Source: Candidatus Microgenomates bacterium (GTDB taxonomy: Bacteria > Patescibacteriota > Microgenomatia > UBA8517 > JACQJR01). From it: a stretch of DNA of 64,000 nt. Every line of letters starts with the position of its first letter. Position 1 is the stretch's first letter. A model generated the notes under the pieces. The model had not been told where the DNA came from, did not search any database, and was given only the letters and a program-made list of their open reading frames with translations. The stretch is from contig JACQJR010000001.1 of assembly GCA_016204995.1 (NCBI GenBank), positions 369,132 through 433,131 on the forward strand, given 5' to 3'. Of this stretch, positions 11,076 to 63,382 are shown piece by piece. The position numbers and the translations under genes are program-made.

Positions 11076-11558
11076 TTAAGGATTTTGGTTCTCTTTATCG
11101 TTTTCTTTGTTGCCCGTCTGTCTCACTTCATTTTCATTATATCCATGTTCTTTACCCCACTTAATCCAATCAGCCGCCATCGCTTTCAAACGCCCTCTAT
11201 GTTCTGGAAGAATAGGATCAACTCCAGTAATGGTGTATAAAGCCTCAAACCAGTGATCCGGCTTTTGCGCAAGTTTCTCTAAAATTAAAGGAACAATTGG
11301 CATTCCCATCTCAATAATTTGCTGGTAGGCTGGATGTTCCACCATCACGCTAATATCCATGTGATGTGGTCTTTCTCGCACCCAGAGATCAGCCAGTTGA
11401 TTAAATTTATCTCTAGTAGCCCTACCTTCAATTACCTCATCAGTAAATTTTGTCAAAGCCTGTCTATCTTCGTTTGATATGTATGGAATCCATAGGTATT
11501 GTTCAAGTTGACTTGCTCTTTCTTCACCATTGAAGTTTGAACCTTGTTCTTTTTTCAT
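11076..11558 (-). CDS. hypothetical protein inserted between rpsG and fusA
   Basis: 160 aa ORF with no recognisable family; host-like composition; own candidate promoter upstream and hairpin plus T-run downstream. Confidence 0.5.
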   Translation of the reverse strand: MKKEQGSNFNGEERASQLEQYLWIPYISNEDRQALTKFTDEVIEGRATRDKFNQLADLWVRERPHHMDISVMVEHPAYQQIIEMGMPIVPLILEKLAQKPDHWFEALYTITGVDPILPEHRGRLKAMAADWIKWGKEHGYNENEVRQTGNKENDKENQNP

Positions 11559-24819: not shown

Positions 24820-25505
24820 ATACTTGCCCCCGACTGCATCGGGGCTAACTCCGCTTTCACTATTAGCCGCCGCAAATAAGTTCCCGGCGGCACGCAGGTA
24901 ATTAAAGTCAGGTGGGGTTTATCGTTAGGTTGGGCCAGCACCGAGATTTCGGTCGGCGCCACCTCAAACATCTCTGAAATGACAAAACGATAAGTGATGC
25001 CATCATAGCTAACTATTATTTCATCTCCTTTCGCCAAAGTTGGCAGGGTAGAAAAAATAGATAAATAATTGGTAGGGCTAAAAAACTGCGGCAAAGTAGA
25101 ATGGCCAAAAATGACAGCATTACCCACTCGGCCTGGTATGGCCGTCCCCTTATAATGAATTAAATTTTTACTTAAGTCTTCGCCGGCAATTTCCACTGTC
25201 GCCTGGCTAATTTTTAATTTAGGAATTGATAAAGTATAGTATTTAATTTGAGAATTAGCTTCTGGCCGGTCGGGGAAATCCAAGCTGCCTACAAACCAAT
25301 TGGAAGCCCGAGTTAAATCTACGGGGCTATATTTTTGGCTATTGCTGTCTCCTACCGGAGATAAAAATTTAGAATCACTATCGCCCCGACTAAAGTTAGG
25401 GGCAGTAAACAATTCGTATGAAATAATAGGGAAAACGGCGCTGGTTAACACCAAGCCTCCCCCGATAATTAAAAAAATAGCCAATAACCGAAGCCAAAAC
25501 ATCAT
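24816..25505 (-). CDS. sortase-family transpeptidase
   Basis: 229 aa; N-terminal TM anchor; catalytic His (VIFGHS), TLITC cysteine motif, downstream Arg (RRLIV). Confidence 0.75.
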   Translation of the reverse strand: MMFWLRLLAIFLIIGGGLVLTSAVFPIISYELFTAPNFSRGDSDSKFLSPVGDSNSQKYSPVDLTRASNWFVGSLDFPDRPEANSQIKYYTLSIPKLKISQATVEIAGEDLSKNLIHYKGTAIPGRVGNAVIFGHSTLPQFFSPTNYLSIFSTLPTLAKGDEIIVSYDGITYRFVISEMFEVAPTEISVLAQPNDKPHLTLITCVPPGTYLRRLIVKAELAPMQSGASI

Positions 25506-27715: not shown

Positions 27716-27729
27716 TTTGGCGAGTATCT

Positions 27730-29076
27730 CTATTTTACACCTTGGCGGGAAACTTGTTGATGCCGACTAAATTCTTCGTTAAACTGTTGTCTATCAATTT
27801 TCTGACCTTTAACCGCAAATAATTCTTCCAAAACTTCTAAAGGAAAACCATAAGTTTGATAAAGATCAAAAGCAATCTTGCCGTCAATTTGAGCAATTTT
27901 TTCAATCTCTGCCAAACCTCTCTCTAAAGTTTTACCAAATTTATCCAGCTCTTGGCGAATAACATCAGCTATCTCATCTTTTTTAGAAATATCTAACATA
28001 TCGGTACCAGCGTATGTGTCAATAACACTACCACTGACTACTGCTAAATCTTGAGGTTTTTCCGTGGAACCGCAGATGCTATTAAATTTTACCGCCGCTC
28101 TTCTTAATAGTCTTCTTAAGACATAACCTTGCATTTTGTTGGAAGGTAGAATATCACTGGCAATAATAAAAGTAGCCGCTTTCATATGATCGGTAATGAT
28201 CTCAAATTGCTCTGATACAGCGATATCTTGGTAACTTCTTCCACTAATATTTTCTATTGCAGTAATAATTTTACTAAATAAGTCTGTCTCAAATATATCA
28301 GGGTTATCATTTGTTGCCGCTGTCATTCTCTCTAAACCGCCGCCAAAATCCACGTTTTTTTGGGTAAGTTCTTGTAAAGTTCCGTCCGCTTGCTTTTGAT
28401 ATTGGATAAAAACCGAGTTGCCGATTTCTACAAATCTGCCGCAATCGCAATTAGGATGACATTTATCTCCAAATCTTGGATCATGTTCCACTTGAGTAAA
28501 TTCATAAAATACTTCACTGTCCGGACCGCCGATTTCGCCGGCTGGCATTTGCTCCGGTGTGCCCGAACGAGACCACCAGTTTTTTTCTACGCCGTAGGCG
28601 AAAATATGATCCTCGGGGACGCCTAAACTTTTCCAGATTTCATAAGACTCATTATCTTTTGGTACTCCACTATTGCCACCTGTCCCGAGCGAAGCCGAGG
28701 GATCAAAAATACTGACATACAATTTTTCGTGAGATAGCTTTAACTCTTCTGTTAAAAATTGCCAAAACCAGGGAAGTTGTTCTTTTTTAAAATAATCTCC
28801 CAAAGACCAATTACCTAACATTTCAAAAAAAGTAGTATGGCGATTATCACCTACTTCTTCTATATCCTGTGCTCTAAAACATTTTTGGGAATTAACTAGT
28901 CTTTTTCCTTGCGGATGCGGCTTACCCAATAGATAGGGAACTAAAGGCTGCATGCCAGCACTGGTAAATAAAGTGGAAGGGTCATTTTCCGGAACAAGAG
29001 ATGCACTAGGGATTTCCTGATGCCCATATCTCACAAAAAATTCAATATATTTTCTCCGCACCTCTTCTGAAGTCAT
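27730..29076 (-). CDS. alaS: alanine--tRNA ligase, N-terminal catalytic/tRNA-recognition half only (448 aa; no editing or C-Ala domain)
   Basis: FTSAGM, FFEMLGNWSLGDYFK class-II AlaRS motifs; ORF ends after the tRNA-recognition region. Confidence 0.85.
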   Translation of the reverse strand: MTSEEVRRKYIEFFVRYGHQEIPSASLVPENDPSTLFTSAGMQPLVPYLLGKPHPQGKRLVNSQKCFRAQDIEEVGDNRHTTFFEMLGNWSLGDYFKKEQLPWFWQFLTEELKLSHEKLYVSIFDPSASLGTGGNSGVPKDNESYEIWKSLGVPEDHIFAYGVEKNWWSRSGTPEQMPAGEIGGPDSEVFYEFTQVEHDPRFGDKCHPNCDCGRFVEIGNSVFIQYQKQADGTLQELTQKNVDFGGGLERMTAATNDNPDIFETDLFSKIITAIENISGRSYQDIAVSEQFEIITDHMKAATFIIASDILPSNKMQGYVLRRLLRRAAVKFNSICGSTEKPQDLAVVSGSVIDTYAGTDMLDISKKDEIADVIRQELDKFGKTLERGLAEIEKIAQIDGKIAFDLYQTYGFPLEVLEELFAVKGQKIDRQQFNEEFSRHQQVSRQGVK

Positions 29077-30487: not shown

Positions 30488-31102
30488 TTATTGAGTGAAT
30501 TTAAAGGTGGAGAGGATTTTAAATAGTTCATCTTCAATAGATTGATTTGGCCCTTCATATCTAAGGTAAAATATGAATTCATCGCCGTCCTTTTCAATCA
30601 TATTAGACATGAAGTCTTGGTGACCGTCATTAATACGGGCCATCTCATCTTCTGTGTTGTTTACCAACTTTTTATATTCTTCATCTGATATTTTGGTTAT
30701 TTTGTTAATTTTCAATTGATTATTTGATAATACTACCTTTATCTCTCCTGTAATGACATTAATACCATGGCCCCCCATGAATTTTTCTATAATTAATGTA
30801 GGCTTCTCGGGTATTCCTGCATTACTAATAACTACCATACTGCCCCCTCCTGTAGTATCCGCTAAGGAATAAGTTAAAGGATATTGAATTGAAAATTTAT
30901 ACCTTGAATTGGTATACGTTTTCCAGCTAGCAGTTTCATCTAAAGAGGTAGGAGAAGGTAAAACCGTGTTCATAGATTCGCGGGGAGTTAGAGTTATGGA
31001 TTGTTTACCCAGAAAGTATGCTCCGCCACCAATAGCTAAAATTACCACTATTATTAAAATTAGTATTGGAGTAAAACCGCCCTGTTTGGAGTTTACGACC
31101 AT
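30488..31102 (-). CDS. membrane-anchored hypothetical protein with prepilin-like N-terminus
   Basis: 204 aa; MVVNSKQGG|FTPILILIIVVILAIGG; the N-terminal 25 aa are paralogous to 29134-29550. Confidence 0.45.
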   Translation of the reverse strand: MVVNSKQGGFTPILILIIVVILAIGGGAYFLGKQSITLTPRESMNTVLPSPTSLDETASWKTYTNSRYKFSIQYPLTYSLADTTGGGSMVVISNAGIPEKPTLIIEKFMGGHGINVITGEIKVVLSNNQLKINKITKISDEEYKKLVNNTEDEMARINDGHQDFMSNMIEKDGDEFIFYLRYEGPNQSIEDELFKILSTFKFTQ

Positions 31103-46133: not shown

Positions 46134-46436
46134 TTAGTCGTTTGGTATATAGACTGTGACAATAACAGGTTTTTTAAATCTTAAACCAATGACTACATGA
46201 ATTAATTTATTAGTTTTCGTCTTACCTGCTATCAGACGGCTTTCGCCTCGTGGATCATCCAATCTCTCTTTTATAACAGAACCTGAAAATATTGCTTCCT
46301 CTATCTCATTAACAGTCAACTTATCATTTATTCTTTCTTCATCTGCATGTTCTGAAAAAAGATAATCTTTTTTGCTGATTAAACCCTGTATCTTCTTAAA
46401 ATCCATAGGCAAGAATCTATTTATTATAACTCTCAA
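46134..46436 (-). CDS. DUF4258-like small protein, putative toxin partner of the YgiT zinc-finger protein
   Basis: 100 aa; ...YLFSEHADEERINDKLTVNEIEEAIFSG... resembles the DUF4258 fold; paired gene arrangement. Confidence 0.5.
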   Translation of the reverse strand: MRVIINRFLPMDFKKIQGLISKKDYLFSEHADEERINDKLTVNEIEEAIFSGSVIKERLDDPRGESRLIAGKTKTNKLIHVVIGLRFKKPVIVTVYIPND

Positions 46437-46504
46437 TTAATTGATAAAATGTCTATTATAATAATATTGTGGAGATGCCTGAAGGGTGAAATCGTATTGA
46501 CACC

Positions 46505-47392
46505 TTATAATCCTTCTTCCGCCAATTCTTCAATTAATTCTTTTTGATCTCGGGTCAGTTTTTCAGGGATAGCCACATTCACCCGAACATACTCGTCGCC
46601 TCGTCCCCGGCCGCGCAGATGGGGGATACCACGCTCCTTTAATCTCATCATGGAGCCTGATTGAATACCAGGCCGGATCCGCAATTTCAAATCGCCATCA
46701 ATTGTCGGCACTTTAATTTCCCCGCCCAGTACCGCCAGGCTAAAAGGAATTACTACTTCTACAATCACGTCGCTCCCTTCTCGTCTAAAAACCGGATCTG
46801 GCTGAACACCAATTGTGATATCAAAATCGGCAAAGGCCAAATGAGTTCCATCGTCTGCCCCGGCCGGGATTTTAATAGTCCGTTTTTTGCCCTCAATAGC
46901 AACAGTTTTTTCAACTCCTTTGGCCGCTTCCTTAAAACTAATCTCTAAATGATAATGGGGTTTTTGGGCGCGTCTGTCTCCAAAAGGCGAACCGCCACCG
47001 AAAAATTGTTCAAAAATTTCAAAGGGATCGCCAAAGTCTCCAAAAGGCGAACCGCCACCAGAAGTGGTATAAGTATAAGTAAAAGGACCATAACGGCCAG
47101 TGCGAGCCTGTCCACCGCCACCTCCGAAACCACCACCAAAAGGCCCGCCGCCTGGCATGCCACCGGGGGTAAAAGCGGCATGACCAAATTGGTCATAAGC
47201 GTTCTTTTTTTCCGGATTAGAAAGGACTTCGTAGGCCTCGCTGGCTTCTTTGAATTTTTGTTCAGCTTCGGCGGATTTATTGCGGTCTGGATGCCACTCT
47301 AGGGCTTGCTTGCGATAAGCGCGTTTTATTTCCTCACTTGAGGCATTTTTGGTAACTCCCAGAATATCATAGTAATCTCTTTTTGTAGCCAT
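46505..47392 (-). CDS. dnaJ: J-domain co-chaperone (DnaJ/CbpA-like, no zinc-finger region, single C-terminal domain)
   Basis: 295 aa; J domain [33 protein letters not shown]; G/F-rich region with internal duplicated GGGSPFGD; no CxxCxGxG repeats. Confidence 0.8.
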
Positions 47393-47404
47393 AATAATTC
47401 AATT

Positions 47405-47817
47405 ACAAATGCTAAATGATAAATGCTAAATTAATTTTTCTTCGCATTGATAACAATTTTGCTAATTATAGCAATTATCTGCTGATTCTCATCTAAAACT
47501 GGCTCAAATCTAGTTTTTAAACTTAAATTATGGTCGGACAATAATGATAGCCAATAATGCGTTTCTTTTGCTTCTTTCTTAGAAATAGTAAACCTATGTA
47601 TAAACTCTTTCTTAGATTCTGCTCCATCCGCCTCGCTGGCATTCGCACCTATTGAACCAGATGATCTTATAACTTGTCTTATCATTACTAAATTTTCTGG
47701 AGTATTGGGTACGAATTTAACTATTTGGAGAACACCTAAGACGAATTTATATATTCTATTATGTATATCTCTAGTTTTGATTTCATTGGCCATTTATCAT
47801 TGGACATTTAGCATTAA
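47405..47817. repeat. inverted repeats flanking the four-helix-bundle gene (left 47405-47430, right 47794-47817)
   Basis: left AAATGCTAAATGATAAATGCTAAAT; reverse complement of the right AATGCTAAATGTCCAATGATAAATG; shared AATGCTAAATG and ATGATAAATG blocks in inverted orientation. Confidence 0.6.
47431..47793 (-). CDS. four-helix-bundle protein (23S rRNA intervening-sequence protein family, TIGR02436-like)
   Basis: 120 aa; ...SGSIGANASEADGAESKKEFIHRFTISKKEAKETHYWLSLL... typical of this family; inserted between dnaK and dnaJ; flanked by inverted repeats. Confidence 0.7.
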   Translation of the reverse strand: MANEIKTRDIHNRIYKFVLGVLQIVKFVPNTPENLVMIRQVIRSSGSIGANASEADGAESKKEFIHRFTISKKEAKETHYWLSLLSDHNLSLKTRFEPVLDENQQIIAIISKIVINAKKN

Positions 47818-52849: not shown

Positions 52850-53158
52850 ATGCCACAGACAAAATCGGCAAAACGGGCTTTAAGAGCCAGCAAGGACCGG
52901 AGATTAAGAAATGCCAAAATTTCTGCCGGTTATAAAAAGGCCATTAAGCTGGCACGCGCCAAAAATACTCCCAGCCTAATAAGCACTGCATATCAAACAT
53001 TGGATATGGCAGCTAAAATTGGCGTTATTCATTGGAAAAAAGCGGCCCGCCTAAAAAGCCAATTAGCCAAAGCTGGACAAAAGACTCCAAGTTCCACCAC
53101 TCAACCAAAAGTCAAGAAATCTTCTAAGAATGTAAGTTTGAAAAGTATTTTTAACTAA
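52850..53158 (+). CDS. rpsT: 30S ribosomal protein S20; the last 9 codons are supplied by the 94-bp repeat element
   Basis: MPQTKSAKRALRASKDRRLRNAKISAGYKKAIK... S20 signature; C-terminus ...NVSLKSIFN encoded by the repeat starting at 53131. Confidence 0.8.
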   Translation: MPQTKSAKRALRASKDRRLRNAKISAGYKKAIKLARAKNTPSLISTAYQTLDMAAKIGVIHWKKAARLKSQLAKAGQKTPSSTTQPKVKKSSKNVSLKSIFN

Positions 53159-53224
53159 CTTTAGGTTCAATTTTACAAATTTTGATAAATTTTCGAACCT
53201 AAATCATTTTTCAAACTTACACTC
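53131..53224. repeat. 94-bp repeat element copy 1 (internally palindromic, MITE-like); left boundary of the GC-rich insert
   Basis: identical over 94 of 94 bp to 55877-55970; terminal inverted repeats GAGTGTAAGTTTGAAAA / TTTTCAAACTTACACTC and inner AGGTTC...GAACCT. Confidence 0.9.
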
Positions 53225-53395
53225 GGAATACCGGTCCCGCCACCGTACCTGCTTGCTTGCCACCACGATGTCGCTTCTCAGGAACAAATCCATTGTCCAG
53301 GGGGCAAGAAGAAACCCAAAAGCAGGTGCTCGCGGGTTTTTTTATTTCCGGCTAACTGCCAATTCTGGGCCGATTTAGGAACGATGTTGGGGGTT

Positions 53396-53470
53396 TGGAG
53401 CGGGAGACGGGACTCGAACCCGCGACAGCCTGCTTGGAAGGCAGTCTGTTACGGCCTAGCTAGTCTCCGC
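53396..53470 (-). tRNA. tRNA-Gly(UCC)-like element with non-canonical 5' half (pseudo-tRNA or integration-site remnant)
   Basis: minus-strand reading gives anticodon arm CTGC-CTTCCAA-GCAG (anticodon UCC), T-arm GCGGG-TTCGAGT-CCCGT and 3' end CTCCCGC-T-CCA (Gly-like C70/G71/C72 and U73). The 5' strand GCGGAGA mispairs and there is no canonical D-arm. Confidence 0.3.
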
Positions 53471-53990
53471 ACGGTCCTGGGGAGGAGGGTCCAGGCAGAC
53501 GGTCACCGACCATGTCCACTGGACACTAACAATATGCACTATTGGGCTGAATCTGGCAAGGCTCTGCAAGGCATTCGGTAATTATTGACGGCAAGCTACT
53601 ACCTGCCTGACGCGACTCTCTCGCGTCAGGCCGAACAACCAGTTATGCCTGTTCTTAGGAAACGGATCAGTTGTCAACCCCCCAATTCAAGGTCAAGAAC
53701 GGCGGTATTCAGAATACCTGTCTTATAATGAGGTCGGCAGGCAGGGCCGCAAATCATGAGCAAGGAGGCAGAGCCACAGCTACATACATCATCAGAAGTA
53801 AGACCATCGAACCCCGCGGTCTCTAACATCCTGCGGGGCATACATCATAGCTTTCGAAGACCCAGGGCGTTAGAAGTCGCTCTATACTCTGTCCCGGTAC
53901 TTGCCGGAGCCGCAAATTGCTATTTGTCGAAACAATTGGCTTCCAGTGACCTAGCTGAGCGCAGAGCAGCGCTCGGTACCATGCTGATTG

Positions 53991-54653
53991 TCACTGGGGT
54001 ATGGGGCTTGGCTCTCCGTTTGAGGAATTTAAAGCCTTGAATAGGCAAACAAGTGCTTCAATAGCCACTGAAGTGAGTATACTACCCAGCAACACAATCG
54101 ATATCTCTCGAAAATCCGGCAGGGCAGGTGACCCAGAGAGCTGGGAGGAATCCCGAGTTATCTCTAGGAACAATAATGCGCCCGAAGTAACCGCTCCACC
54201 TATCCAAATAATCAAAATACTCGTATTAGCGCCAAGAATTACGCAGGCAACCCGGAAGACCCCCAAGACGGATAATGTAAGAAACGAAACCAAGATAGGA
54301 TTGTTGATGCCTGCGGGTGTTCCTGATCCCACTACGCTTCCTAACCCGAGGCTTGTCCACCCCAACATAATGTACACGAACCAAATCTCCGGGAACTTAG
54401 GGTGTCCCTTATCGCCATTCGAGCAGAACACAGGCAGAGCCCACCCGGAGAATCGATTTGGCCAAACCGCTGCTAGAGTTAACGCACCGATTCCGACCGC
54501 TAATGTTAAGTTGCCACTCCGCGCAATTACCTCAAGTAGCACTTCTCGCTCGCTGCATTCGTTTGTACCTCCGATCACGCCAAGGGCAGCGACGAGCAAC
54601 AACATGAGGGCAACACGGCAGATCTGCTGCCCACGTAAAAGAATACCTAGCAT
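53991..54653 (-). CDS. polytopic membrane protein, hypothetical (inside the GC-rich insert)
   Basis: 220 aa, 6 or more hydrophobic segments; the opposing plus-strand ORF 54001-54666 is Arg/Ser/Pro/Thr-rich and looks antisense. Confidence 0.4.
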   Translation of the reverse strand: MLGILLRGQQICRVALMLLLVAALGVIGGTNECSEREVLLEVIARSGNLTLAVGIGALTLAAVWPNRFSGWALPVFCSNGDKGHPKFPEIWFVYIMLGWTSLGLGSVVGSGTPAGINNPILVSFLTLSVLGVFRVACVILGANTSILIIWIGGAVTSGALLFLEITRDSSQLSGSPALPDFREISIVLLGSILTSVAIEALVCLFKALNSSNGEPSPIPQ

Positions 54654-54680
54654 GGCGTCCGTTTAGCTGTTCCTTCTAGG

Positions 54681-55484
54681 TCAAAATAGCTTCAGAGAAA
54701 CGAGGACATGTTGGAAAGCATCGATCATGCTGCCGTCTTCAGCTAAATCGGTACTTGAGACGCCAGTAAGATTGGCCGTCAATACCAAGAACCTCCCTGT
54801 CCTTGGGAACGCCGCGTGGACGCTCTTTCCTAGAGCACCAGCTGTGAAGAAGTGTCCAGTTACGCCGCTGACCGTAACCTCTTTGCGGTTGGCAACGGTG
54901 GGATCATCTTCTGCAGGCAGTGTATACGAATCAGTCAACACAGCTTCAATGCATTTTGGGCCACCTGGTATCTGATCGCGCAAATTGGTAGTTGGAGGGC
55001 AAAGTCTAAAACCCTTCTGGTTCGGCTGCTCGATAGCAACCTTAATCCAGTCTTTGGGGTACTCAATCGAATATCCGCCTTGGTTGTCCGTAAAAGAAGT
55101 CCATGTTGGTTCTGTGAGCGGTTCGGACGGCAAGCTATAAGCGATGTAGCCGCCAGAGGGGTCTCTAAACATCAGGGAATTGGCCGTATCTCCCTGCTGC
55201 TCGACATCTTCTGTGGAAACAGGCTTCCACCGGGCAGACGGTACGGGAGAAGGACTTGATGATACTCTTTGTCCATGATTTTGGATCATCGTTCTATCGA
55301 CCGCTCGCCACCTAACATAGTCGACGGTACCAATAAGGAGAAGTATGCCAACGACTAGCAAAGGAAGAAACGTGGGAGAATGGGCTACGACGCCGAACAC
55401 CTTTCTCATGTGGCTTGTTGGTATGTTTTCCGAACTTTCATCGGGCTTTAGTAGGTTATTGAGGCTGTCATCGGGTGGTTCCAT
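54681..55484 (-). CDS. membrane-anchored hypothetical protein (inside the GC-rich insert)
   Basis: 267 aa; one TM near residue 40 to 60; higher-GC codon usage than the host. Confidence 0.4.
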   Translation of the reverse strand: MEPPDDSLNNLLKPDESSENIPTSHMRKVFGVVAHSPTFLPLLVVGILLLIGTVDYVRWRAVDRTMIQNHGQRVSSSPSPVPSARWKPVSTEDVEQQGDTANSLMFRDPSGGYIAYSLPSEPLTEPTWTSFTDNQGGYSIEYPKDWIKVAIEQPNQKGFRLCPPTTNLRDQIPGGPKCIEAVLTDSYTLPAEDDPTVANRKEVTVSGVTGHFFTAGALGKSVHAAFPRTGRFLVLTANLTGVSSTDLAEDGSMIDAFQHVLVSLKLF

Positions 55485-55510
55485 AGAAAACGATATGAAT
55501 ACTCATAATA

Positions 55511-55876
55511 TCACATGCTTTCAACAGATCCCGGATGTTCCCTGGTCGGCAGTATCTTACCCAATTCGGCAGCGATGTCATTGGTAGTAATATTCAGTTC
55601 GTCGCCAAAGGCACCCACAGTTCTGGCTGCTCTCATAGCAGCCTGACGCGCCCCTGCATTGACAGCTCCGGCGATTTCGGCCGGTGATCGTCCTGCCGCA
55701 ATTTCTACTAGGCGCTCCAGATCGACCAGGTCTGCCCCCGGCTTGCCGCTAAGATGAATTTTCAAGACAAGGCGCCTAGCATCCGGATCAGGTAATCCTA
55801 CTTCGACCTTACTATCGAAGCGGCCCGCGCGGAGCAGTGCCTCATCCAAATCGGACGGACGGTTTGTCGCTGCGAG
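55511..55876 (-). pseudogene. 5'-truncated AAA+ ATPase gene (FtsH/CDC48-type C-terminal fragment) cut at the 94-bp repeat
   Basis: the reading frame runs ...[22 protein letters not shown]... (AAA second region of homology and sensor) with no upstream Walker A or B; the upstream end is replaced by repeat sequence at 55877. Confidence 0.6.
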
Positions 55877-55970
55877 TGTAAGTTTGAAAAGTATTTTTAA
55901 CTAACTTTAGGTTCAATTTTACAAATTTTGATAAATTTTCGAACCTAAATCATTTTTCAAACTTACACTC
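55877..55970. repeat. 94-bp repeat element copy 2 (direct orientation)
   Basis: perfect copy of 53131-53224; flanked on the left by the truncated AAA gene and on the right by the truncated istA. Confidence 0.9.
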
Positions 55971-56956
55971 ATAACGATTTCGCAAATTATAAGCGTAGTA
56001 AACATATCGAAACTGGCCCAGGCGAACAAGCACAAGTTGATTGGGCAAGTTTTGGTAAAATTGAAATTAACGGTAAAGTAAAAAAAGAGAGATTGTCCTG
56101 TTTTGTCTACGTTTTAAGTTATAGTCGGGCTTTATATATTGAATTTACTATTAAACAAAACCTTCAGACTTTAGAAGAATGTCATCTCCATGCCTTTGAA
56201 GAATTGGGTATACCTAAAACTATTGTTTATGACAATATGAAGACCGTAGTTTTAAAAAGAGAAAAATTACCTAAAGATAAATCAATAATACATTACAATC
56301 CAGCATTTGCTGATTTTGCCCAACACTATGATTTCCATCTATGGGCTTGTACGCCTCATTTACCTCGGGCTAAGGGAAAAGTAGAAAGAACAATTAGGTA
56401 TATAAGAAGTAATTTTATGCAAGGTATTAAAGTCAGACGGCAAGGGCTATCTCTGGAAGAGTTAAATAAAAAGGCATTAACGTGGTTAGAAAATGAAGCT
56501 AATGTCAGAATACATAAAGCTACTAATGAACGGCCACTGGATAGTTGGAAACGAGAAAAACCCTATCTACGATTTCCCAAAGATTATCATCCCTATACTA
56601 CCTCACCTTTCATAGTAAGATACAGCACTAAAGACGGAATGGTGCAATATAAATCAAACTTTTACTCCATACCAACAAAATTTTCTAGGAAAAAGCTCTT
56701 GGTAAGAGAAATAAACAAAAATGGCATGATTTTTCTAGAAATTTATCATGAAGATCAACTTATCACTGCTCATGGATTAAATAGAGATCGTGGACAATGG
56801 ATTACACAAGACCAACACCTTTTATCTGAAAACAAAACATCGCCTAAAAGAAAAATCAAGAAAAATTTATTTCACAAAGCAAAAATACAAAAAATAAAAG
56901 ATTTTACCAGAGGATTTGAGTACTACGAAAGGATAATTTCTACCTATAATGTCTAA
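55971..56956 (+). pseudogene. istA: IS21 transposase IstA, N-terminally truncated
   Basis: the open frame from 55971 reads ...KHIETGPGEQAQVDWASFGKIEINGKVKKERLSCFVYVLSYSRALY... (IS21 DDE region) with no start codon or HTH domain; the ORF track starts at a TTG at 56093. Confidence 0.75.
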
Positions 56957-57758
56957 GTCAAAATCTAATCAGTCTTATATTATTCCCGATGGTTTAAAGC
57001 AAAAGGAAAAAATAGATGTTGGGTTAAAGTTATTGAAGCTAGAAGGAATGAGATTTTCTTTTGATGCCTTAGCGCGGGACTATATTAAACAACAAAAAAC
57101 ATCTTATGATTTTTTGGAAAGCTTAACAGAGATTGAGTGTTCATGGAAACATGATAACAGAGTTGAATATTTAATTAAAAATGCCCGCTTTCCATTTATT
57201 AGAAGTATTTATGATTTTGATTTTGATTTTCAACCTAATATTAATAAACAACAAATAATGGAACTTGCTTCCTGCAGGTTTATTGAGCGGGGAGAAAATA
57301 TTATTTTTCTAGGTAAATCTGGAGTAGGTAAAACTCATTTAATTATTTCCTTGGGTATGGAGGCTATTGATAAATTATATTCTGTGCGTTATTTGCACAT
57401 CGGTGATCTAATTGAATCAATAAATAGAACTACAAATAACGGTGACGATTTATATAAACTTCTCAAGAATTTGCTACGCTTCAGATTACTTATTCTTGAC
57501 GAAATGAATCCTTATAACGTAAGTCCAGAATCAAGTAAGTTTTTATTCAAATTATTATGGGAACGTCACGAACAAAGACGTTCTACAATTTTTGCTTCTA
57601 ATCACGATCTTAAAGAGTGGGTTGTATTATTCGGGAGCAAAAATCGAGCCGAGGCAGTGATGGACCGTATTTTAACCCGCCAGATGTATGAAATTATTAC
57701 TATCGAAGGACCTTCTCACCGAGCCGAAAGAGGAGAAAATAGCCTAAAACTGCTTTAA
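56949..57758 (+). CDS. istB: IS21 helper ATPase IstB
   Basis: 269 aa; Walker A FLGKSGVGKTHL, Walker B LLILDEM; overlaps the istA stop. Confidence 0.8.
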   Translation: MSKSKSNQSYIIPDGLKQKEKIDVGLKLLKLEGMRFSFDALARDYIKQQKTSYDFLESLTEIECSWKHDNRVEYLIKNARFPFIRSIYDFDFDFQPNINKQQIMELASCRFIERGENIIFLGKSGVGKTHLIISLGMEAIDKLYSVRYLHIGDLIESINRTTNNGDDLYKLLKNLLRFRLLILDEMNPYNVSPESSKFLFKLLWERHEQRRSTIFASNHDLKEWVVLFGSKNRAEAVMDRILTRQMYEIITIEGPSHRAERGENSLKLL

Positions 57759-57767
57759 AGAAGTAAA

Positions 57768-58424
57768 TTATTCTAAAGATTTACCGCTAATTTCCTTTGC
57801 TTTCTGTCTGAAAAATGAACGCAACTCCTCCAAAGTTAATAGCTTAATCATCTCGGGCAGAAAATCAAAAGTTTCTACTTTTAACAAATCAGCTCCTACA
57901 ACAAAAGGATCCATTTTAACCTTAAATTTTACTCGTACTCCTTCTAATAAATCCCAAATAGTGAATTCTTTTAATAAGAAATAAAGATCAGCAAAATCTT
58001 TGACTTCAGTCCTTTGTTCTATTGCTAATAGTTTATTAATGGATATATCTAACAGTGAATCAATAGCCAGATTATCTACTATCTTACTCTTCTCTACTCG
58101 CTTATAAGGATAAAAGGCAAAATCAACTTTGACAGTCCGTTTGTCTGAAAAAATTAGGTTAAATATCTGGGTATTTTCTACTGCTAGATAATCAACTATA
58201 AAATGTAATTTTTTCTCCCAGAGAGTCATCTTGTCTAAGATAACTTGCGGATCAAATTTCTCTTGGCTGAAAAAATCAAGATCAATAGACTTACGATGTT
58301 GCAGATAATATAAACTTAAAGCTGTCCCGCCTGTAAAATAAAAAATGGAAGAAAGAAAGCGGTCTTTTCTAACTTCATCTAGTAACAATTCCTGCTCGGG
58401 GGTAATAATTCTTACTTGCCCCAT
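57768..58424 (-). CDS. AbiEii/AbiGii-family nucleotidyltransferase toxin (type IV toxin-antitoxin)
   Basis: 218 aa; FYFTGGTALSLYYLQHRKSIDLDFF matches the AbiEii NTase motif hGGTAL...R.S.DLD. Confidence 0.7.
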   Translation of the reverse strand: MGQVRIITPEQELLLDEVRKDRFLSSIFYFTGGTALSLYYLQHRKSIDLDFFSQEKFDPQVILDKMTLWEKKLHFIVDYLAVENTQIFNLIFSDKRTVKVDFAFYPYKRVEKSKIVDNLAIDSLLDISINKLLAIEQRTEVKDFADLYFLLKEFTIWDLLEGVRVKFKVKMDPFVVGADLLKVETFDFLPEMIKLLTLEELRSFFRQKAKEISGKSLE

Positions 58425-58606
58425 ATTAATAACTCTAGTAATCGTTTACGTGTGGGGAAAAGATGAAGATTTTTCCAGTTTTTTTTCACCTGGGATAAAT
58501 TAATTTTCTCCTTTCCGGGACCATAATTAATCATTCTTTCCAAAAGGAGAATTTTTCCTTTTTCGCTTTGCTCAAGTTTCTTTCTGTTATAATCCCACAG
58601 CCACAT
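58412..58606 (-). CDS. small ORF upstream of and overlapping AbiEii; possible minimal AbiEi-like antitoxin remnant
   Basis: 64 aa, basic; position and 13-nt overlap are consistent with an antitoxin partner, but it is much shorter than the roughly 200 aa of a canonical AbiEi. Confidence 0.25.
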   Translation of the reverse strand: MWLWDYNRKKLEQSEKGKILLLERMINYGPGKEKINLSQVKKNWKNLHLFPTRKRLLELLIWGK

Positions 58607-58800
58607 ATCTTTTTTTATTATACTACAAAATCTAATGTTGCAAAAAAATTTACCAAAACCGCTTCAAAGTAATCCTAGACAAACATAGTTTCACTTCATA
58701 TACTGCGTTTAGTAATTAGTAATGAGAGCTGAGAGGTTGGTAAAATAAAACATTCAACTACTAAACTCTAACCTCTAAACTACTAACTACTCATTGACCC

Positions 58801-59337
58801 ATGCCTGTCCGGAAAAAATCAATCAGCCTGCTACCACAAGATGAGTTTGCCGCCTCACCCTTAGGTAGAGTATTGACTTGGGCATTAGGCGCCGGCCGAG
58901 TTATCGTCATTATCACCGAACTGGCAGTCATTTTAGCTTTCCTTTCCCGCTTCTGGCTGGATCGCCGGCTGACTGACTTAAACGAACAAATTGACGCTAA
59001 ATCCCATCTGGTTGCCGCCAGCAGCAACTTTGAAAATCAATTTCGCAGTTTACAAAATCGTATCAATCTAGTAGCTCAAAAACAGAATAAAGACGATTTA
59101 TTTAAAATCGTAAACAATATTGTTACTCTGATTCCCCCAGAAGTAAAACTAACTCAACTTACCGTCAACCAAGAAGACATCCAAATTACCGGTTTAGGCC
59201 TGTCGGAAAACGGCATTGCCAGGTTTTTAAATAAACTAAACAATGCCAAGCTGGGAGAAGCCAAACTAACTCAATTAGCTACCGGCGAGCAGGAATCAGG
59301 CATTAAATTTAGTCTGGTGATTAATACTAAACATTAA
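58801..59337 (+). CDS. pilN: type IV pilus assembly protein PilN-like
   Basis: 178 aa; N-terminal ISLLPQDE motif (PilN INLLP signature), then a TM and periplasmic coiled coil. Confidence 0.6.
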   Translation: MPVRKKSISLLPQDEFAASPLGRVLTWALGAGRVIVIITELAVILAFLSRFWLDRRLTDLNEQIDAKSHLVAASSNFENQFRSLQNRINLVAQKQNKDDLFKIVNNIVTLIPPEVKLTQLTVNQEDIQITGLGLSENGIARFLNKLNNAKLGEAKLTQLATGEQESGIKFSLVINTKH

Positions 59338-59950: not shown

Positions 59951-60165
59951 AAAAAACATCTCAACCCAGAATTGTCACTTTTGCCTTGTTAACTACCATT
60001 ACTATGCTCACCTGGGTAACTTTTGAAGTCTGGCATTCTTTTAACAAACCAGCTCCAATCCAAGTGGAACAAAAGCTGCTGGCGCCTCTTAATCCTCAAT
60101 TAGATACTAAAACTATAGAAGAACTACGGGATAAATTATTTTTTGAAGGAGGAGTAAACCCATGA
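59947..60165 (+). CDS. small membrane protein in the pilus-like cluster
   Basis: 72 aa with one TM; translationally coupled to its neighbours by overlaps. Confidence 0.35.
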   Translation: MKKTSQPRIVTFALLTTITMLTWVTFEVWHSFNKPAPIQVEQKLLAPLNPQLDTKTIEELRDKLFFEGGVNP

Positions 60166-61580
60166 GGAAAGAACGGACTATTCCCACCGTCATTGGTCTA
60201 GTGTTACTGCTGGCCGGGGTAGGAATTTCCGTTCTGCTAGTTCAGCGCCAGCAGTTTTTTAAACTAACGGCGGCGCCGGAAATTACCCCCAAAGATGTCA
60301 GAATCACCAATGTAACTGATGGCGGCTTTACTGTTTCCTGGATGACAGACAAAGAAACCATCGGTTTTGTTTCCTTTGGCGATTCCACCTCATTGGGTCA
60401 GATAGCCCAAGATGATCAAGGGACCAAGAGTTCTCCCTTACACCATGTTACCATCTCCAATTTATCTACCAATACTCGCTACTTTTTCAAAATCGGCTCC
60501 GATCGCGACACCTTTGACCAGGATGGGAAGCCGTGGGAGCAAAAAACCGCGACACAACTTTCACCTCGGACAGCCGATGTCATCTCCGGTACTGTCAAAA
60601 ATAGCCAAGGCGCGCCGGCAAGCGACGCTTTAGTCTATGTCACCCTGCCGCAAGCCGCCCCTCTCTCTACCACCACCGATAGTTCCGGTAGTTTTTCTTT
60701 GTCACTGGCCCCTGCCCGCACCACCAATTTATCTTCCTATGTCACCTACGATAAAAATAATGCCCTCTTGTCTATTTTCGTCCAGGCAGGAAGCGGTCAA
60801 GTATCTTCGGCCCAAGTAGCAGCCGCTAGCGCTCACCCTGTCCCGCCTTTAATTTTGGGCCAGACTCATGATTTTCGTCGCTTAAGCCAGACTGGCGAAG
60901 CTACCTCTCCCGGCGCTGATTTAGCCTTACCATCGGCAGCGCCGACTGCTTCGCCCGAAAGCGCCAGCTCGGGTTTTAATTTAAACCCGATTGCTTCCAG
61001 CTCGCCCGCACCCTCGGTAGATAAACTAACTATTGATAATCCCAAAGAGGGAGAAAATATCAGCACTAAAACTCCGGAGTTTCGTGGTCAGGGTCCTAAA
61101 GGCGTTAAAGTTAACTTAACTCTTAACTCCACTACCCCCATCACCGGTACCGCCACAGTAGCCGCAAATGGCACTTGGACCTGGACGCCGCCCCAAACCT
61201 TAACTACCGGTAGTCACATCCTAATTGCCACTCTTACCGATAGCAAAGGTCAAAAACAAACCACTTCGCGCAATTTTAGCGTCTTAGCCAAAGCGGCTAA
61301 TTTACCAGCTTTTACCGCCACCGGTTCGGCTCAAGCCAGCCCCGGTCCAACCGGGGCCAGTCCCAGTGCCACGCCTCGCGTTACTGCTAGTCCTTCTGCT
61401 TCACCTCGAGCTAGTATTATACCCACTGTGGCCCCTCGCATCTCTATGCCTTCTACCGAATCTGGGGTACCCGTTTCTGGCGACTTGACAAATACTATTG
61501 CAGTTTTCATACTGGGTATAACCTCCATTTTTGGAGGGGCTCTCTTGTTCATAAAAACAAGAGGGAATAATTACCAATAA
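60162..61580 (+). CDS. cell-surface protein: N-terminal signal anchor, FN3-like domain, carboxypeptidase-regulatory-like domain, Thr/Ser/Pro-rich spacers, C-terminal TM plus basic tail (sortase-substrate-like architecture)
   Basis: 472 aa; VRITNVTDGGFTVSWMTDKETIGFVSFG (FN3/purple-acid-phosphatase N-terminal-like); ISGTVKNSQGAPASDALVYV (CarboxypepD_reg-like); C-terminus ...VPVSGDLTNTIAVFILGITSIFGGALLFIKTRGNNYQ. Confidence 0.55.
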   Translation: MRKERTIPTVIGLVLLLAGVGISVLLVQRQQFFKLTAAPEITPKDVRITNVTDGGFTVSWMTDKETIGFVSFGDSTSLGQIAQDDQGTKSSPLHHVTISNLSTNTRYFFKIGSDRDTFDQDGKPWEQKTATQLSPRTADVISGTVKNSQGAPASDALVYVTLPQAAPLSTTTDSSGSFSLSLAPARTTNLSSYVTYDKNNALLSIFVQAGSGQVSSAQVAAASAHPVPPLILGQTHDFRRLSQTGEATSPGADLALPSAAPTASPESASSGFNLNPIASSSPAPSVDKLTIDNPKEGENISTKTPEFRGQGPKGVKVNLTLNSTTPITGTATVAANGTWTWTPPQTLTTGSHILIATLTDSKGQKQTTSRNFSVLAKAANLPAFTATGSAQASPGPTGASPSATPRVTASPSASPRASIIPTVAPRISMPSTESGVPVSGDLTNTIAVFILGITSIFGGALLFIKTRGNNYQ

Positions 61581-61663
61581 TTACCAATATCCGATAATAC
61601 CAATGCATCAATCATTGGAAATTGGACATTTGAAATTGGTAGTATTGGTATTATTTTATTATT

Positions 61664-63382
61664 ATGCCCGACGAATCTGCCCAGAAGCCTGTTTCACCCG
61701 CTAGTCCTACAGTCGGACCGGCTACCCCGCCTCCTGTCCATGAACCCATCACTCCTAACTCTGAACCATCTATGCCGGAAGCAACCCACGATTTCCCGAC
61801 GATTCCCACTTCAGAACAAACTATTCCTACCATGCCGCCAACAGATCCCACTTCCCCTCCCTTCGGCTCCAGTTCGACTTCGCTCACTGCGGGCGCTCAG
61901 GGCCTGCGGCCTACTGCACAACCGGCACCAGCCGCTCCCAATTTTAGCCCGGGCGGCATCCCGCCTGTCATTACTCCACCCTCGCCCCGCCGGCCCAAAG
62001 CCAAAATTGTCGGAGCGATACTGGCTTTATTGATTTTAGTGGTGGGTATTCCGGTCGGAGTTTTTTTAGTCCAGCAAAATCAAGAAGTCCGCGAAAAAGC
62101 TTCTACTTGTCAAGATGATTGTAACAGCGCGCTCACTAGTTGTAATAATCAATGTAATCAAAATTTTGACAGCTGTACGGGCACTTGTGGGCCTGCAGAT
62201 GGCTCTACAGAATACGAAAGCTGCTATGGCGCTTGTCAAGGTGCACAAAACAGTTGCAATAGTGGGTGTGGTGGCGAATTTGATTTTTGTCTCACTTCTT
62301 GCGGCAGCACCACTTGTCCTGACGGCATTTGCAGCGATGAAGAATTTAATAATGGTTCCTGTGCTCAAGACTGCGGTTCGCCTGGATCAAACGTCTGCGG
62401 CGATGGAACCTGTAGCGATGAAGAATTTAATAACAACAATTGTCCTCAAGATTGTACGCCAACCGATGGGGACGGGGATGGTGGGGGTGGAGAAAGTAAC
62501 TATTGTATAGAAGCTGGGTATCATCAATGCACTCCTGGTAGCCCAGCCGGAACTTGTACCAATAATGGTCAAACCTGTACCTCTTATGAGCATTATGCCT
62601 GTAATTATGGAGGGCAGAATTACTGCGACGCACCGATTTGCGATACCAATTCTTGTGGTGGTGGAGATGACGGCGGAGGTGGTGGAGGCTGCCAATACAA
62701 TAACGCCTATGATGCCGGCTTATTAGCCGACAAACCAAATCCTAATGACCAATGCGGCACTCAAGATGGCATTTATTGTAACAATGGCAATACTAATTTC
62801 TGTTGTTACGGCGATGGAAATTGTTTTGCAGGCCAGCAAGGATCCTGTACTAATAACGGCAATGGCAGTATCACCACTACTCAATCTGCCCAAATTATTG
62901 AATTCTCGTGTCCCGGCCAGACTTCAGCGACGGGCAGCTGTTCGGAAAATCAAACCTCTAAAGGTAATCAACCGGCCGGCACTTACACCACGGGCGGCAG
63001 CGGCTGCGGCGGCTTCCAGATAGATGCAGTGGGTCTGTGCGGCAGCTATAAATTTGTTTCCTGCGGGGGCGGTGGCGAGCCAGAGGTTAACAATCAATGT
63101 TTGAACATTAAAGCTTATGATACTAATTGGAAACAGCTGTCAACCAGTGAACTGGCTCAACTTAAAGTGGGAGATCAAATTCGGGTGGCGGTTAACGGCA
63201 ATACTACTTCCGGGACGTTAAATAAAGCCAGATTTAGAATTAATAATAGTTCGTCCTGGCAAGAAACTACGGCTAAAAATCCCAACGGCGAATTCTATAT
63301 TTCCGTGACTATTTCTCAAGGACCACCTACTTGGAAATTTGATGCCCAATTACATCATCAAGAAAGTGATACTTGGTTCTAA
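61664..63382 (+). CDS. type II membrane protein with Pro-rich N-terminal cytoplasmic region, one TM, and a very cysteine-rich repeat ectodomain (about 70 Cys) ending in a beta-rich C-terminal domain
   Basis: 572 aa; TM IVGAILALLILVVGIPVGVFLV; repeated units CPDGICSDEEFNNGSCAQDCGSP and CGDGTCSDEEFNNNNCPQDCTPT plus many CxxxC pairs; Gly-rich spacers. Confidence 0.6.
   Translation: MPDESAQKPVSPASPTVGPATPPPVHEPITPNSEPSMPEATHDFPTIPTSEQTIPTMPPTDPTSPPFGSSSTSLTAGAQGLRPTAQPAPAAPNFSPGGIPPVITPPSPRRPKAKIVGAILALLILVVGIPVGVFLVQQNQEVREKASTCQDDCNSALTSCNNQCNQNFDSCTGTCGPADGSTEYESCYGACQGAQNSCNSGCGGEFDFCLTSCGSTTCPDGICSDEEFNNGSCAQDCGSPGSNVCGDGTCSDEEFNNNNCPQDCTPTDGDGDGGGGESNYCIEAGYHQCTPGSPAGTCTNNGQTCTSYEHYACNYGGQNYCDAPICDTNSCGGGDDGGGGGGCQYNNAYDAGLLADKPNPNDQCGTQDGIYCNNGNTNFCCYGDGNCFAGQQGSCTNNGNGSITTTQSAQIIEFSCPGQTSATGSCSENQTSKGNQPAGTYTTGGSGCGGFQIDAVGLCGSYKFVSCGGGGEPEVNNQCLNIKAYDTNWKQLSTSELAQLKVGDQIRVAVNGNTTSGTLNKARFRINNSSSWQETTAKNPNGEFYISVTISQGPPTWKFDAQLHHQESDTWF

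Follow-up and report, generated by a model that had tools for sequence, protein, structure and literature searches.

A GC-rich segment between two identical copies of a putative MITE at rpsT in an assembled Candidatus Microgenomates contig

Introduction

Does a short GC-rich segment enclosed by two copies of one hairpin repeat, lying between rpsT and pilN in a metagenome-assembled Candidatus Microgenomates genome, record the capture of foreign DNA, or was it joined to its neighbours by an assembler? The window, meaning the whole stretch of DNA analysed, comprises 64,000 nucleotides (64 kb) of contig JACQJR010000001.1 (GCA_016204995.1). An earlier reading of the letters alone (hereafter the original prediction) had offered two explanations, a mosaic insertion through a MITE-like repeat and a chimeric join at a multi-copy repeat, and had proposed that copies of the 94-mer be counted and the proteins of the segment be assigned taxonomically.

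If the arrangement is real, it would show that a streamlined CPR genome, a setting from which few mobile elements have been described, holds a MITE-like element and has captured foreign DNA through recombination, and the repeat with its 2.65-kb cargo would be a sequence tag for DNA flow linking a CPR bacterium with a GC-richer groundwater neighbour. If it is a chimera, caution is due for the 609-kb MAG contig, and HY404_02185 and HY404_02190 would be misattributed to Microgenomates. On either reading no new mechanism or function emerges, the cargo consisting mostly of pseudogenes and orphan ORFs. The features of the locus are collected in Table 1.

Table 1. Features of the rpsT–pilN locus (positions in the window)
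Feature	Position	Strand	Remarks
rpsT, ribosomal protein S20, 102 aa	52850..53158	+	Pfam Ribosomal_S20p, E 2e-11, residues 2-75; NCBI MBI4059028.1
Hairpin repeat copy 1 (MITE-like)	53128..53224	+	53131-53224 identical to copy 2; left terminus GAA, not GAG
Left edge of segment	53225..53395	.	No recognisable gene (six-frame translation)
Decayed tRNA-Gly(UCC)	53396..53470	-	ARAGORN call tRNA-Gly(tcc); below Rfam tRNA gathering score
ORF94, doubtful gene	53756..54040	+	Overlaps 3' end of ORF220; called on Logan contigs, not by PGAP
ORF220, polytopic membrane protein	53991..54653	-	Orphan; at least 5 hydrophobic segments
ORF267, N-terminally anchored, PsbP-like extracytoplasmic domain	54681..55484	-	Orphan by sequence
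AAA ATPase C-terminal remnant, two-module CDC48-like	55511..55876	-	About 105-121 codons; cut at repeat copy 2
Hairpin repeat copy 2 (MITE-like)	55874..55970	+	Full 17-nt terminal inverted repeat
istA, IS21-family	55971..56956	+	Directly after copy 2; Pfam rve and Mu-transpos_C_2
istB, complete	56949..57758	+	Pfam IstB_IS21, E 3.5e-53
AbiEii toxin gene (57768-58424) and overlapping upstream 64-aa ORF (58412-58606)	57768..58606	-	Pfam AbiEii, E 3.9e-16
pilN	58801..59337	+	Pfam PilN; native synteny resumes

Results

The repeat

As originally proposed, positions 53131-53224 and 55877-55970 are identical at 94 of 94 nucleotides in direct orientation, and these are the two matches to the repeat in the window, against none expected in shuffles. 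The identity stretches to 97 bp (starts 53128 and 55874) with one mismatch, A/G at 53130/55876. The hairpin-like build that had been described was likewise recovered: a perfect terminal inverted repeat of 17 nt, GAGTGTAAGTTTGAAAA, encloses an inner inverted pair, TTTAGGTTC/GAACCTAAA, and as single-stranded DNA the repeat folds at -22.2 kcal/mol (z = -6.6). The conserved blocks TGTAAGTTTGAAAA and TTTAGGTTC occur as a pair in each arm, with a spacing of 15 nt in one and of 4 nt in the second; such two-block arms look more like transposon ends than like a simple terminator.

The element is short (97 bp, below about 500 bp), AT-rich and non-coding, the reading frames across it being interrupted by stops. 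Given its TGT...ACA ends, its terminal inverted repeat, the block in each arm and its lack of coding capacity, it looks like a MITE, and its termini appear to be of the type used by rve-type DDE transposases (IS21, IS3, IS481). Two further hallmarks of a MITE were looked for. The flanks CTAAGAA, CTCGGAA, GCTGCGAG and CTCATAAC contain no target-site duplication in any pairing or under any boundary definition. No parent IS was detectable, the repeat sharing no terminal repeats with the adjacent IS21 remnant or with 12 loci of IS21 relatives. Across the whole window, no transposase or recombinase able to act on the repeat was found except the truncated IS21. Counting of the 94-mer left its supposed multi-copy status without confirmation in the collections covered: the other 61 kb of the window hold no further copy, complete or degenerate, and the terminal-repeat pattern gave 0 matches in GTDB species genomes, JGI metagenomes and IMG/VR.

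The segment and its cargo

Both repeat copies sit exactly at GC and tetranucleotide boundaries. The GC content of the enclosed DNA is 0.521, compared with a median of 0.433 for 2650-bp windows, and that of the IS21/AbiE island to its right is 0.324. Its tetranucleotide r is 0.29, whereas the median over the window is 0.92. No other part of the window departs as strongly in composition, in line with the prediction of a foreign, higher-GC insert of about 2.65 kb.

The cargo of the segment is mostly debris: besides two orphan membrane-protein genes, it holds a pseudo-tRNA and 14% of an AAA gene. In the tRNA-Gly copy, a manual pairing check found the anticodon arm, the T arm and the 3' acceptor strand intact, while the 5' acceptor strand lacks one G and the D stem is absent. 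Because the acceptor stem is broken and the D stem missing, the copy is a remnant, as had been suggested and as an ARAGORN call that fails the Rfam threshold also indicates; tRNA-Gly genes of phages and plasmids match only its 3' half. The description of its surroundings as a structured non-coding stretch, on the other hand, did not hold, since this DNA folds like shuffled sequence (z -1.1, and -0.4 for the left edge). Inside the left edge, at about 53316-53352, a hairpin and the T-run that follows it could be a candidate bidirectional terminator.

The two membrane-protein genes that had been anticipated are ORF220 and ORF267, which among 5.8e9 proteins each matched only themselves. ORF220 shows GC1 > GC2, a pattern typical of coding sequence. 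ORF267 has a single N-terminal membrane anchor and a weak Pfam match to PsbP; its AF2 model has a pLDDT of 56, and its top Foldseek matches are all PsbP (E 1.5e-5 to 1e-3). The two genes may or may not be expressed. No Pfam match was found for ORF94.

The AAA remnant carries the Pfam domains AAA and AAA_lid_3. Its closest relative, 63% identical over residues 759-863, is the 870-aa MBI4319703.1; this protein belongs to a Chloroflexi MAG from an agricultural groundwater site (PRJNA640378). Among the segment proteins, a nearest relative was thus obtained for this one and none for the two membrane proteins. Translation bore out that the AAA reading frame continues into repeat copy 2. The estimate that the 5' half of the gene is missing was too low, since about 86% is gone and the last 14% or so is left.

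The host locus

The final 8 codons of rpsT come from repeat copy 1, as do its stop codon and one base of codon 94, which agrees with the earlier observation that the end of the gene, here from codon 94 onwards, is repeat sequence. The S20 domain is complete and the gene barely truncated. The broader statement that every junction truncates a gene stands for three of the four junctions, with rpsT hardly affected; at 53225-53395 there is no gene to be cut. Beyond copy 2, alignment of istA to the 423-aa IstA of a related locus (L053) begins at residue 90, so that the start in mid-protein is real: about 90-100 N-terminal codons of about 423 and the left end of the IS are missing. Only 9 bp separate the istB stop from the next gene, against about 50 bp beyond istB in a related intact IS21, and the right end is therefore missing as well. 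The IS21 is a remnant that retains istA (rve) and the overlapping istB and lacks both ends, where intact members of the family carry TG...CA inverted repeats.

The AbiEii pair belongs to an AT-rich (0.32 GC) accessory island, which no third repeat copy bounds and which is absent from the only syntenic relative (L013). No close relatives of the host were found in the collections searched. In L013, rpsT is followed after 9 bp by pilN-pilO-orf72-orf472-orf572, and its S20 protein (83 aa, 42% identical) has a different end, with neither the tail nor the hairpin. This adjacency of rpsT and pilN implies that 53159-58800, which holds both repeats, the GC-rich piece, the IS21 without ends and the AbiE toxin module, is accreted mobile DNA of two different compositions. 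Relative to L013, the rpsT–pilN interval is an insertion hot spot.

The junctions in independent assemblies

The four junctions are named J1 (rpsT|repeat), J2 (repeat|53225), J3 (AAA|repeat) and J4 (repeat|istA). J1, J3 and J4 are found again, 100% identical, in independent Logan assemblies (k=31) of single runs, SRR12113430 and SRR12113383, in contigs that end exactly 30 nt into the repeat. J2 was absent from the Logan contigs and is seen only in the MAG. The pairing of J3 with J2 yields an 18-nt perfect terminal inverted repeat, compared with 14 nt for J1 with J4, and no Ns occur at the junctions. The distribution of the segment across samples follows that of the host only partly. It was detected in at most 2 of the 4 host-positive runs, and it is present, 100% identical along 2,186 bp, in SRR12113385, a run in which none of six host genes was found. 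The rpsT contig of SRR12113420 (L003) passes the left end of the repeat without a branch, revealing no second left-hand context.

If the MAG stems from PRJNA640378, a link to that pipeline which we infer, it was assembled with MEGAHIT at default settings. The default k list of MEGAHIT reaches 99-141, exceeding the 94-bp repeat; where that assembler was used, a path across the repeat needs real spanning k-mers.

Discussion

Recombination into a resident copy

Foreign DNA bearing one repeat copy may have recombined into a resident copy at rpsT, an explanation to which we give an even chance. With the same confidence, this account takes the arrangement to be real, and to be a scar of mobile-DNA traffic rather than a functional system. 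The 97-bp element would be a non-coding, MITE-like transposon remnant, one copy of which already resided at the 3' end of rpsT, abutting the decayed IS21. A foreign molecule, probably circular, with a second identical copy would have entered the resident one by a single crossover, either RecA-dependent or through a transposase-mediated targeted reaction as in IS26 translocatable units. Its donor would have a higher GC content and an AAA gene nearest to that of a Chloroflexi MAG. Such cointegration would explain the two identical direct copies, the foreign DNA that ends abruptly in genes and the missing target-site duplications, which are not expected where recombination occurs at a resident copy. 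Run in reverse, the crossover would free a circle of 2,746 bp and bring back rpsT-repeat-istA. What was observed is the anatomy, the foreign composition, the ancestral rpsT–pilN adjacency and, in independent read sets, three of the four junctions; the order of events, the circular intermediate and the enzyme are proposed. The scar is of an ordinary kind, and the region between these two core genes of the uncultured groundwater bacterium is a junkyard of mobile DNA.

The mosaic insertion first envisaged is supported by the MITE architecture, the foreign composition, the hot spot and the recurrence of J1, J3 and J4; the absence of a duplication and of dispersed copies in the sequences covered, the J2 junction seen only in the MAG and the run with the segment and without the six host genes weaken the case for it. 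Several observations were counted against recombination into a resident copy: J2 is unseen outside the MAG, the segment occurs without host genes in SRR12113385, and L003 is unbranched. The lack of an acting enzyme in the window, the dissimilarity of the repeat to IS21-relative ends and its absence from GTDB, JGI and IMG/VR were counted likewise.

A parallel to such a recombination is offered by IS26 pseudo-compound transposons and translocatable units of the IS6 family (PMC7986276), which also present identical direct copies and require no target-site duplication, and in which, as proposed here, a one-copy circle enters beside a resident copy and can leave by inter-copy recombination. However, IS26 is an autonomous IS of 820 bp with its own transposase, whereas the repeat is non-coding and 97 bp long; no IS6-family transposase occurs in the window, and the reaction here could equally be plain homologous recombination. 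The sole hint of a free circle of this type is the cargo found without host genes in SRR12113385.

Assembly chimera and other explanations

A chimera, the second of the original explanations, is somewhat unlikely and has been weakened by the recurrence of three junctions outside the one assembly. In that case the host would truly carry rpsT-repeat-istA, and the GC-rich DNA with its own repeat copy would come from another replicon or organism. That DNA could derive from a circle of 2,746 bp, from a tandem array or from a larger genome, and the join would result from the assembler having threaded one path through the shared repeat node. At k=31, two branches of the graph lead into the repeat and two lead out of it, which fits either path. 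The solitary J2, the run with the segment and without host genes, the low overlap among host-positive runs, the unbranched L003, the extreme tetranucleotide profile and the longer inverted repeat obtained by joining J3 to J2 all favour such a join. Nevertheless, two organisms would still need to have the identical 94-bp element in common, which implies a biological link either way, and the chimera is not simpler, since the AAA gene and istA remain truncated. The junctions free of Ns, and the k values above repeat length if MEGAHIT defaults were used, also tell against it.

Improbable, too, are two independent insertions of a dispersed MITE, each followed by transposase-mediated adjacent deletions or by inter-copy recombination that trimmed the genes, the GC-rich DNA having arrived separately, for instance by natural transformation. 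The MITE-like architecture and a setting that amounts to a graveyard of mobile elements, with an IS21 cut at both ends, suit this sequence of events, and loss of flanking DNA and of target-site duplications is a known outcome of intramolecular transposition, as a review of the IS6 family states (PMC7986276). However, several events would have to place copies exactly at both compositional boundaries, the remaining 61 kb offer no complete or degenerate copy, and the two copies are identical, hence very recent.

A more ambitious extension of the recombination account is doubtful. Under it, a mobile 97-bp hairpin would be common to a CPR (Microgenomates) episymbiont and a larger, GC-richer neighbour with an AAA gene nearest to that of a Chloroflexi MAG, and the hairpin would have mediated a very recent (100% identical) capture of DNA from this neighbour into the CPR chromosome, beside the type IV pilus genes. 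Within this extension, the 2.2-kb stretch in a run without a detected CPR genome would make the segment a live, excisable unit that marks a physical donor-recipient, possibly host-symbiont, pair.

Site-specific integration is very improbable. The 94-97-bp repeat would then be attL/attR at the rpsT 3' end, and the segment a decayed, integrase-less integrative element, mobilised in trans and belonging to a tandem accretion array. Identical direct repeats do enclose foreign DNA where a conserved gene has its 3' end, the last codons and stop of that gene come from the repeat, a tRNA remnant lies inside the element, and a second accessory island follows directly. However, neither 53225-55873 nor the rest of the window encodes an integrase or recombinase, at its far end the element shows a truncated gene and no terminus, the AT-rich island has no third repeat copy at its border, the S20 gene of L013 has neither tail nor hairpin, and inspection by eye found no integron attC core motifs in the repeat. 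A composite transposon, in which both repeats and the cargo moved as one 2.84-kb unit via the outer ends, has an equally slim chance: the outer termini form the correct inverted pair and MITE-flanked composite-like structures are known in Acinetobacter (PMC6382973), but CTAAGAA on the left and CTCATAAC on the right of the unit are no target-site duplication, the flanks ...TTCTAAGAA and CTCATAACG... share no duplication either, and the rpsT tail and mid-istA that lie outside cannot have adjoined before insertion.

Relation to known MITEs and to IS21

Correia elements and RUP are short bacterial MITEs of about 100 bp. MITEAba12, at 113 bp, is another (PMC6382973). The repeat is similar to these families in size and AT-richness; like them, it has terminal inverted repeats, could form a long hairpin and sits at a gene end, where such elements may supply codons and stop codons. 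They are multi-copy, carry target-site duplications and can be linked to a parent IS, whereas none of the three is demonstrable here. In Acinetobacter, identical MITE copies flank class 1 integrons, and a MITE-297 pair flanks 76 kb on pA297-3 (PMC6382973). Those structures share with the present locus two identical short non-coding copies with terminal inverted repeats around foreign DNA. Unlike the Acinetobacter MITEs (439-502 bp), however, the element here measures 97 bp and encloses gene debris rather than an adaptive module, with no flanking duplication; neither further copies nor a parent IS is known for it.

Compared with the IS21 family, the copy in the window lacks both ends, and the repeat is not similar in sequence to the ends of the IS21 relatives retrieved. 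IstA (an rve DDE transposase) and IstB are present beside the repeat, and an intact relative (L055/L056) ends in TGT...ACA, as the repeat does. This motif, a generic one, is the only feature that the repeat and the IS21-relative ends have in common.

Structure of the repeat

The two copies of the repeat are identical at 94 of 94 positions, as originally noted, and when each is extended by 3 bp to the left they match over 97 bp with one mismatch. Allowing up to three mismatches, these are the only two copies in the 64-kb window (shuffles expect 0), and no degenerate copy or solitary terminus was found elsewhere in it. The termini form the perfect 17-nt inverted repeat that had been proposed (GAGTGTAAGTTTGAAAA), and a second conserved block, TTTAGGTTC, occurs in both arms. 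The gap between this block and the terminus is 15 nt in one arm and 4 nt in the other. In single-stranded form, the element folds much better than its shuffles (z = -6.6). The terminal-repeat pattern, searched with a variable gap, gave 0 matches in GTDB genome, JGI metagenome and IMG/VR viral contigs, and a BLAST search of plasmid and phage sequences with the 97-mer returned no meaningful match. Integron attC core motifs (RYYYAAC / GTTRRRY) were absent from the repeat on inspection by eye. Derivation from the adjacent IS21 was considered and found unsupported: no terminal-repeat match lies 3' of istB, and none of 12 IS21-relative loci resembles the repeat, the two having in common only generic TGT...ACA termini.

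Features of the region and of the wider window
Feature	Position	Strand	Details
Left neighbours of repeat copy 1			grpE, hrcA, murJ, rpsT
Repeat copy 1	53128-53224		94-bp definition 53131-53224
Repeat copy 2	55874-55970		94-bp definition 55877-55970
Logan contigs L001, L002	end at 53160		SRR12113430, SRR12113383; rpsT side, ending 30 nt inside copy 1
Logan contig L004	53398-55906		SRR12113430 and one further run; includes 30 nt of copy 2
Logan contig L005	53463-55648		SRR12113385; 100% identity to the segment
Logan contigs L006, L007	begin at 55941		SRR12113430, SRR12113383; carrying the last 30 nt of copy 2
Candidate structured stretch	53396-53760
Stem-loop	53605-53633		perfect, 11 bp, GC-rich; GCCTGACGCGA GAGAG TCGCGTCAGGC
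ORF220	53991-54653	-	membrane protein
Accessory DNA	53159-58800		repeat 1, GC-rich piece, repeat 2, IS21 remnant, AbiE module
Native comparison region	60501-63150		GC equal to the segment
Native GC-rich genes	60162-63382	+	3' of pilO; Ig-like/CarboxypepD_reg surface protein and 572-aa orphan
Crp/Fnr-family regulator	6253-6909	-	cNMP_binding + HTH_Crp_2; between rpsJ (S10) and rplC (L3)
160-aa ORF	11076-11558	-	no Pfam family; str operon, between fusA (EF-G) and rpsG (S7)
Alanyl-tRNA synthetase region	25502-29076	-	448-aa ORF, then 737-aa ORF without Pfam match
Host PsbP_2-like protein	30488-31102
PF05635 gene	46134-47793	-	'23S rRNA intervening sequence protein' family; between dnaK and dnaJ; range also takes in the DUF4258 gene beyond dnaJ

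Composition and gene content of the segment

The 2,649 bp enclosed by the repeats have a GC content of 0.521 against a median of 0.433 in windows of equal size, which bears out the higher GC first noted. The tetranucleotide profile also sets the segment apart, correlating at only r = 0.29 with the remaining sequence of the window (window median 0.92), while the native comparison region of equal GC reaches r = 0.70. A third compositional class (GC 0.32) lies to the right of copy 2. The GC content of the native genes 3' of pilO reaches 0.50-0.55, and their products abound in Ala, Pro, Ser and Thr; these genes are kept in the syntenic relative described below, so GC alone is no marker of foreign DNA in this genome. 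Elsewhere the window consists of core chromosome (S10, str and rpoBC operons, dnaK/dnaJ, infB, nusA, pnp and ftsK).

At the left edge, the S20 domain of rpsT is complete and the repeat supplies just the last 8-9 codons and the stop, in agreement with the nine expected. The tRNA-Gly(UCC) called by ARAGORN is indeed a remnant: it falls below the Rfam tRNA threshold, one base is deleted in its 5' acceptor strand, the D stem is absent, and tRNA-Gly genes elsewhere match only its 3' half. The surrounding non-coding stretch had also been taken to be structured; however, it folds no better than chance (z = -1.1 and -0.4), and with no Rfam match at gathering score a structured RNA or tmRNA was rejected. 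Under lax Rfam settings, the sole match in the whole window was a tRNA-Sec at 21.5 bits. At gathering score, the entire window (1-64000) holds 0 Rfam families despite its dense ribosomal-protein operons, and the decayed tRNA-Gly is its only tRNA call. Leader RNAs are common in such operons of other phyla. The stem-loop in non-coding sequence between the pseudo-tRNA and ORF94 is not followed by a T-run.

ORF220, with at least five hydrophobic segments, is a convincing polytopic membrane-protein ORF left uncalled in the NCBI annotation of the MAG, where accessions pass from S20 directly to ORF267; gene calling on the Logan contigs did pick it up. ORF267 has a single N-terminal anchor and a possible PsbP-like domain, indicated by a weak Pfam match and a low-confidence AF2 model, 14 of whose top 16 Foldseek matches are PsbP-family structures. 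Its similarity to the host PsbP_2-like protein is limited to a 17-residue motif, and paralogy was rejected. ORF220, ORF267 and the AAA fragment had 0 relatives in a 5.8-billion-protein index. By exhaustive HMMER search, the closest relative of the AAA fragment was MBI4319703.1 (63% identity over residues 759-863). This two-module AAA ATPase of 870 aa belongs to a Chloroflexi MAG from an agricultural groundwater site. The gene is therefore truncated as proposed, but about 86% of it is missing rather than its 5' half. Outside this fragment, the segment has no synteny with the Chloroflexi MAG, and the segment DNA matched plasmids and phages at the tRNA-Gly only. No N-terminal part of AAA or IstA was detected in the window by tblastn.

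Accretion at the rpsT-pilN locus

Beyond copy 2, istA begins mid-protein as described, about 90-100 of its ~423 codons being absent. The complete istB is separated by 9 bp from the convergent AbiEii gene, while a related intact IS21 has ~50 bp 3' of istB and ~85 bp 5' of istA; the IS21 of the window has thus lost both ends. The one syntenic genome retrieved, a 725-kb contig, has the order grpE, hrcA, murJ, rpsT (83 aa), 9 bp, pilN-pilO-orf72-orf472-orf572. Its direct rpsT-pilN adjacency identifies the intervening DNA of the window as accessory material built up at one spot, and the locus is a site of mobile-element accretion. In 90% protein clusters, every cluster was a singleton, with no empty-site allele and no full-length IstA among them. 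The syntenic contig (CAYQZQ010000001.1, 725,544 bp) is titled 'uncultured Pseudomonadales bacterium', yet it shares the gene order from grpE to orf572 with this Microgenomates window, an order of Patescibacteria-like type; the other MurJ relatives in the same match list are Patescibacteria MAGs, and the label is probably wrong.

Junctions and occurrence in independent read sets

Proteins of the window are recorded at NCBI under Candidatus Microgenomates bacterium (locus tags starting at HY404_02185, 609,565-bp contig). Logan assemblies (k=31), each built from one sequencing run, matched the region at 100% identity and were broken at the repeat. Their contig ends establish that the rpsT-repeat, AAA-repeat and repeat-istA junctions are real in the reads. 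The remaining junction, between the repeat and position 53225, was not recovered from Logan, where two ORFs in 53225-53581 gave no record. In the k=31 graph, the repeat is a node with two entries and two exits, which fits equally the linear order and an rpsT-repeat-istA chromosome accompanied by either a circle of 2,746 bp or some other replicon.

Each of six host genes (rpsT, hrcA, pilO, istB, AbiEii and rplN) was present in three or four of the runs SRR12113430, 383, 384 and 420, and none of the six was found in SRR12113385. ORFs of the GC-rich segment occurred in 430, in one further run and in 385. In run 420, the rpsT contig passes the left end of the repeat unbranched and ends exactly at its right end. 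Segment occurrence is therefore partly decoupled from the host, which fits either a polymorphic mobile unit also living elsewhere or a chimera. The presence of the segment in run 385, apart from the six host genes, suggests that this DNA has a second location, in the genome of a donor or as a free element.

Origin of the arrangement

The observation of a repeat-bracketed segment is real, and the outer flanks (the rpsT tail and istA) cannot have been contiguous before. The simplest path is a single crossover with a foreign molecule. A resident repeat copy would have lain at the rpsT tail, abutting the decayed IS21, and would have recombined with a single identical copy borne by a foreign molecule, through either a homologous or a transposase-targeted crossover. 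This route is analogous to that of IS26 translocatable units (PMC7986276), and the locus resembles MITE-flanked structures of Acinetobacter (PMC6382973). Nothing at the locus suggests a new kind of system.

The main rival is an assembly chimera at the shared repeat, with which both the graph and the run distribution are compatible. The naming style of the organism, the MBI4 prefix that its protein accessions have in common with those of the Chloroflexi MAG, and SRR run numbers that appear consistent suggest that the MAG may be part of PRJNA640378. In that project, MEGAHIT 1.2.9 was run at its defaults, and IDBA-UD was then used for scaffolding. The MEGAHIT default k list reaches 99, 119 and 141, exceeding the repeat length; if these defaults were used, crossing the repeat required real spanning k-mers, which makes a chimera less likely. 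We consider it fairly probable that the foreign piece truly lies in this chromosome, with an appreciable minority chance to the contrary.

Independent MITE insertions with adjacent deletions are another rival. The repeat is MITE-like in form, as claimed. Of the two features that define a MITE, no target-site duplication exists in any pairing of the four flanks under three boundary definitions, and no dispersed copy appeared in the 64-kb window or in the public contig scans. Integration at an att site and composite transposition are the least likely rivals. The window contains no usable transposase and no recombinase.

Other features of the window

The Crp/Fnr gene is an unusual break in the S10 ribosomal operon, and the 160-aa ORF stands within the str operon. 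The alanyl-tRNA synthetase catalytic ORF matches its Pfam model, 552 positions long, over positions 1-432 only, and the gene may be split or highly diverged. Furthermore, a toxin-like DUF4258 gene lies directly beyond dnaJ and, together with the PF05635 gene, places small accessory genes inside the chaperone operon.
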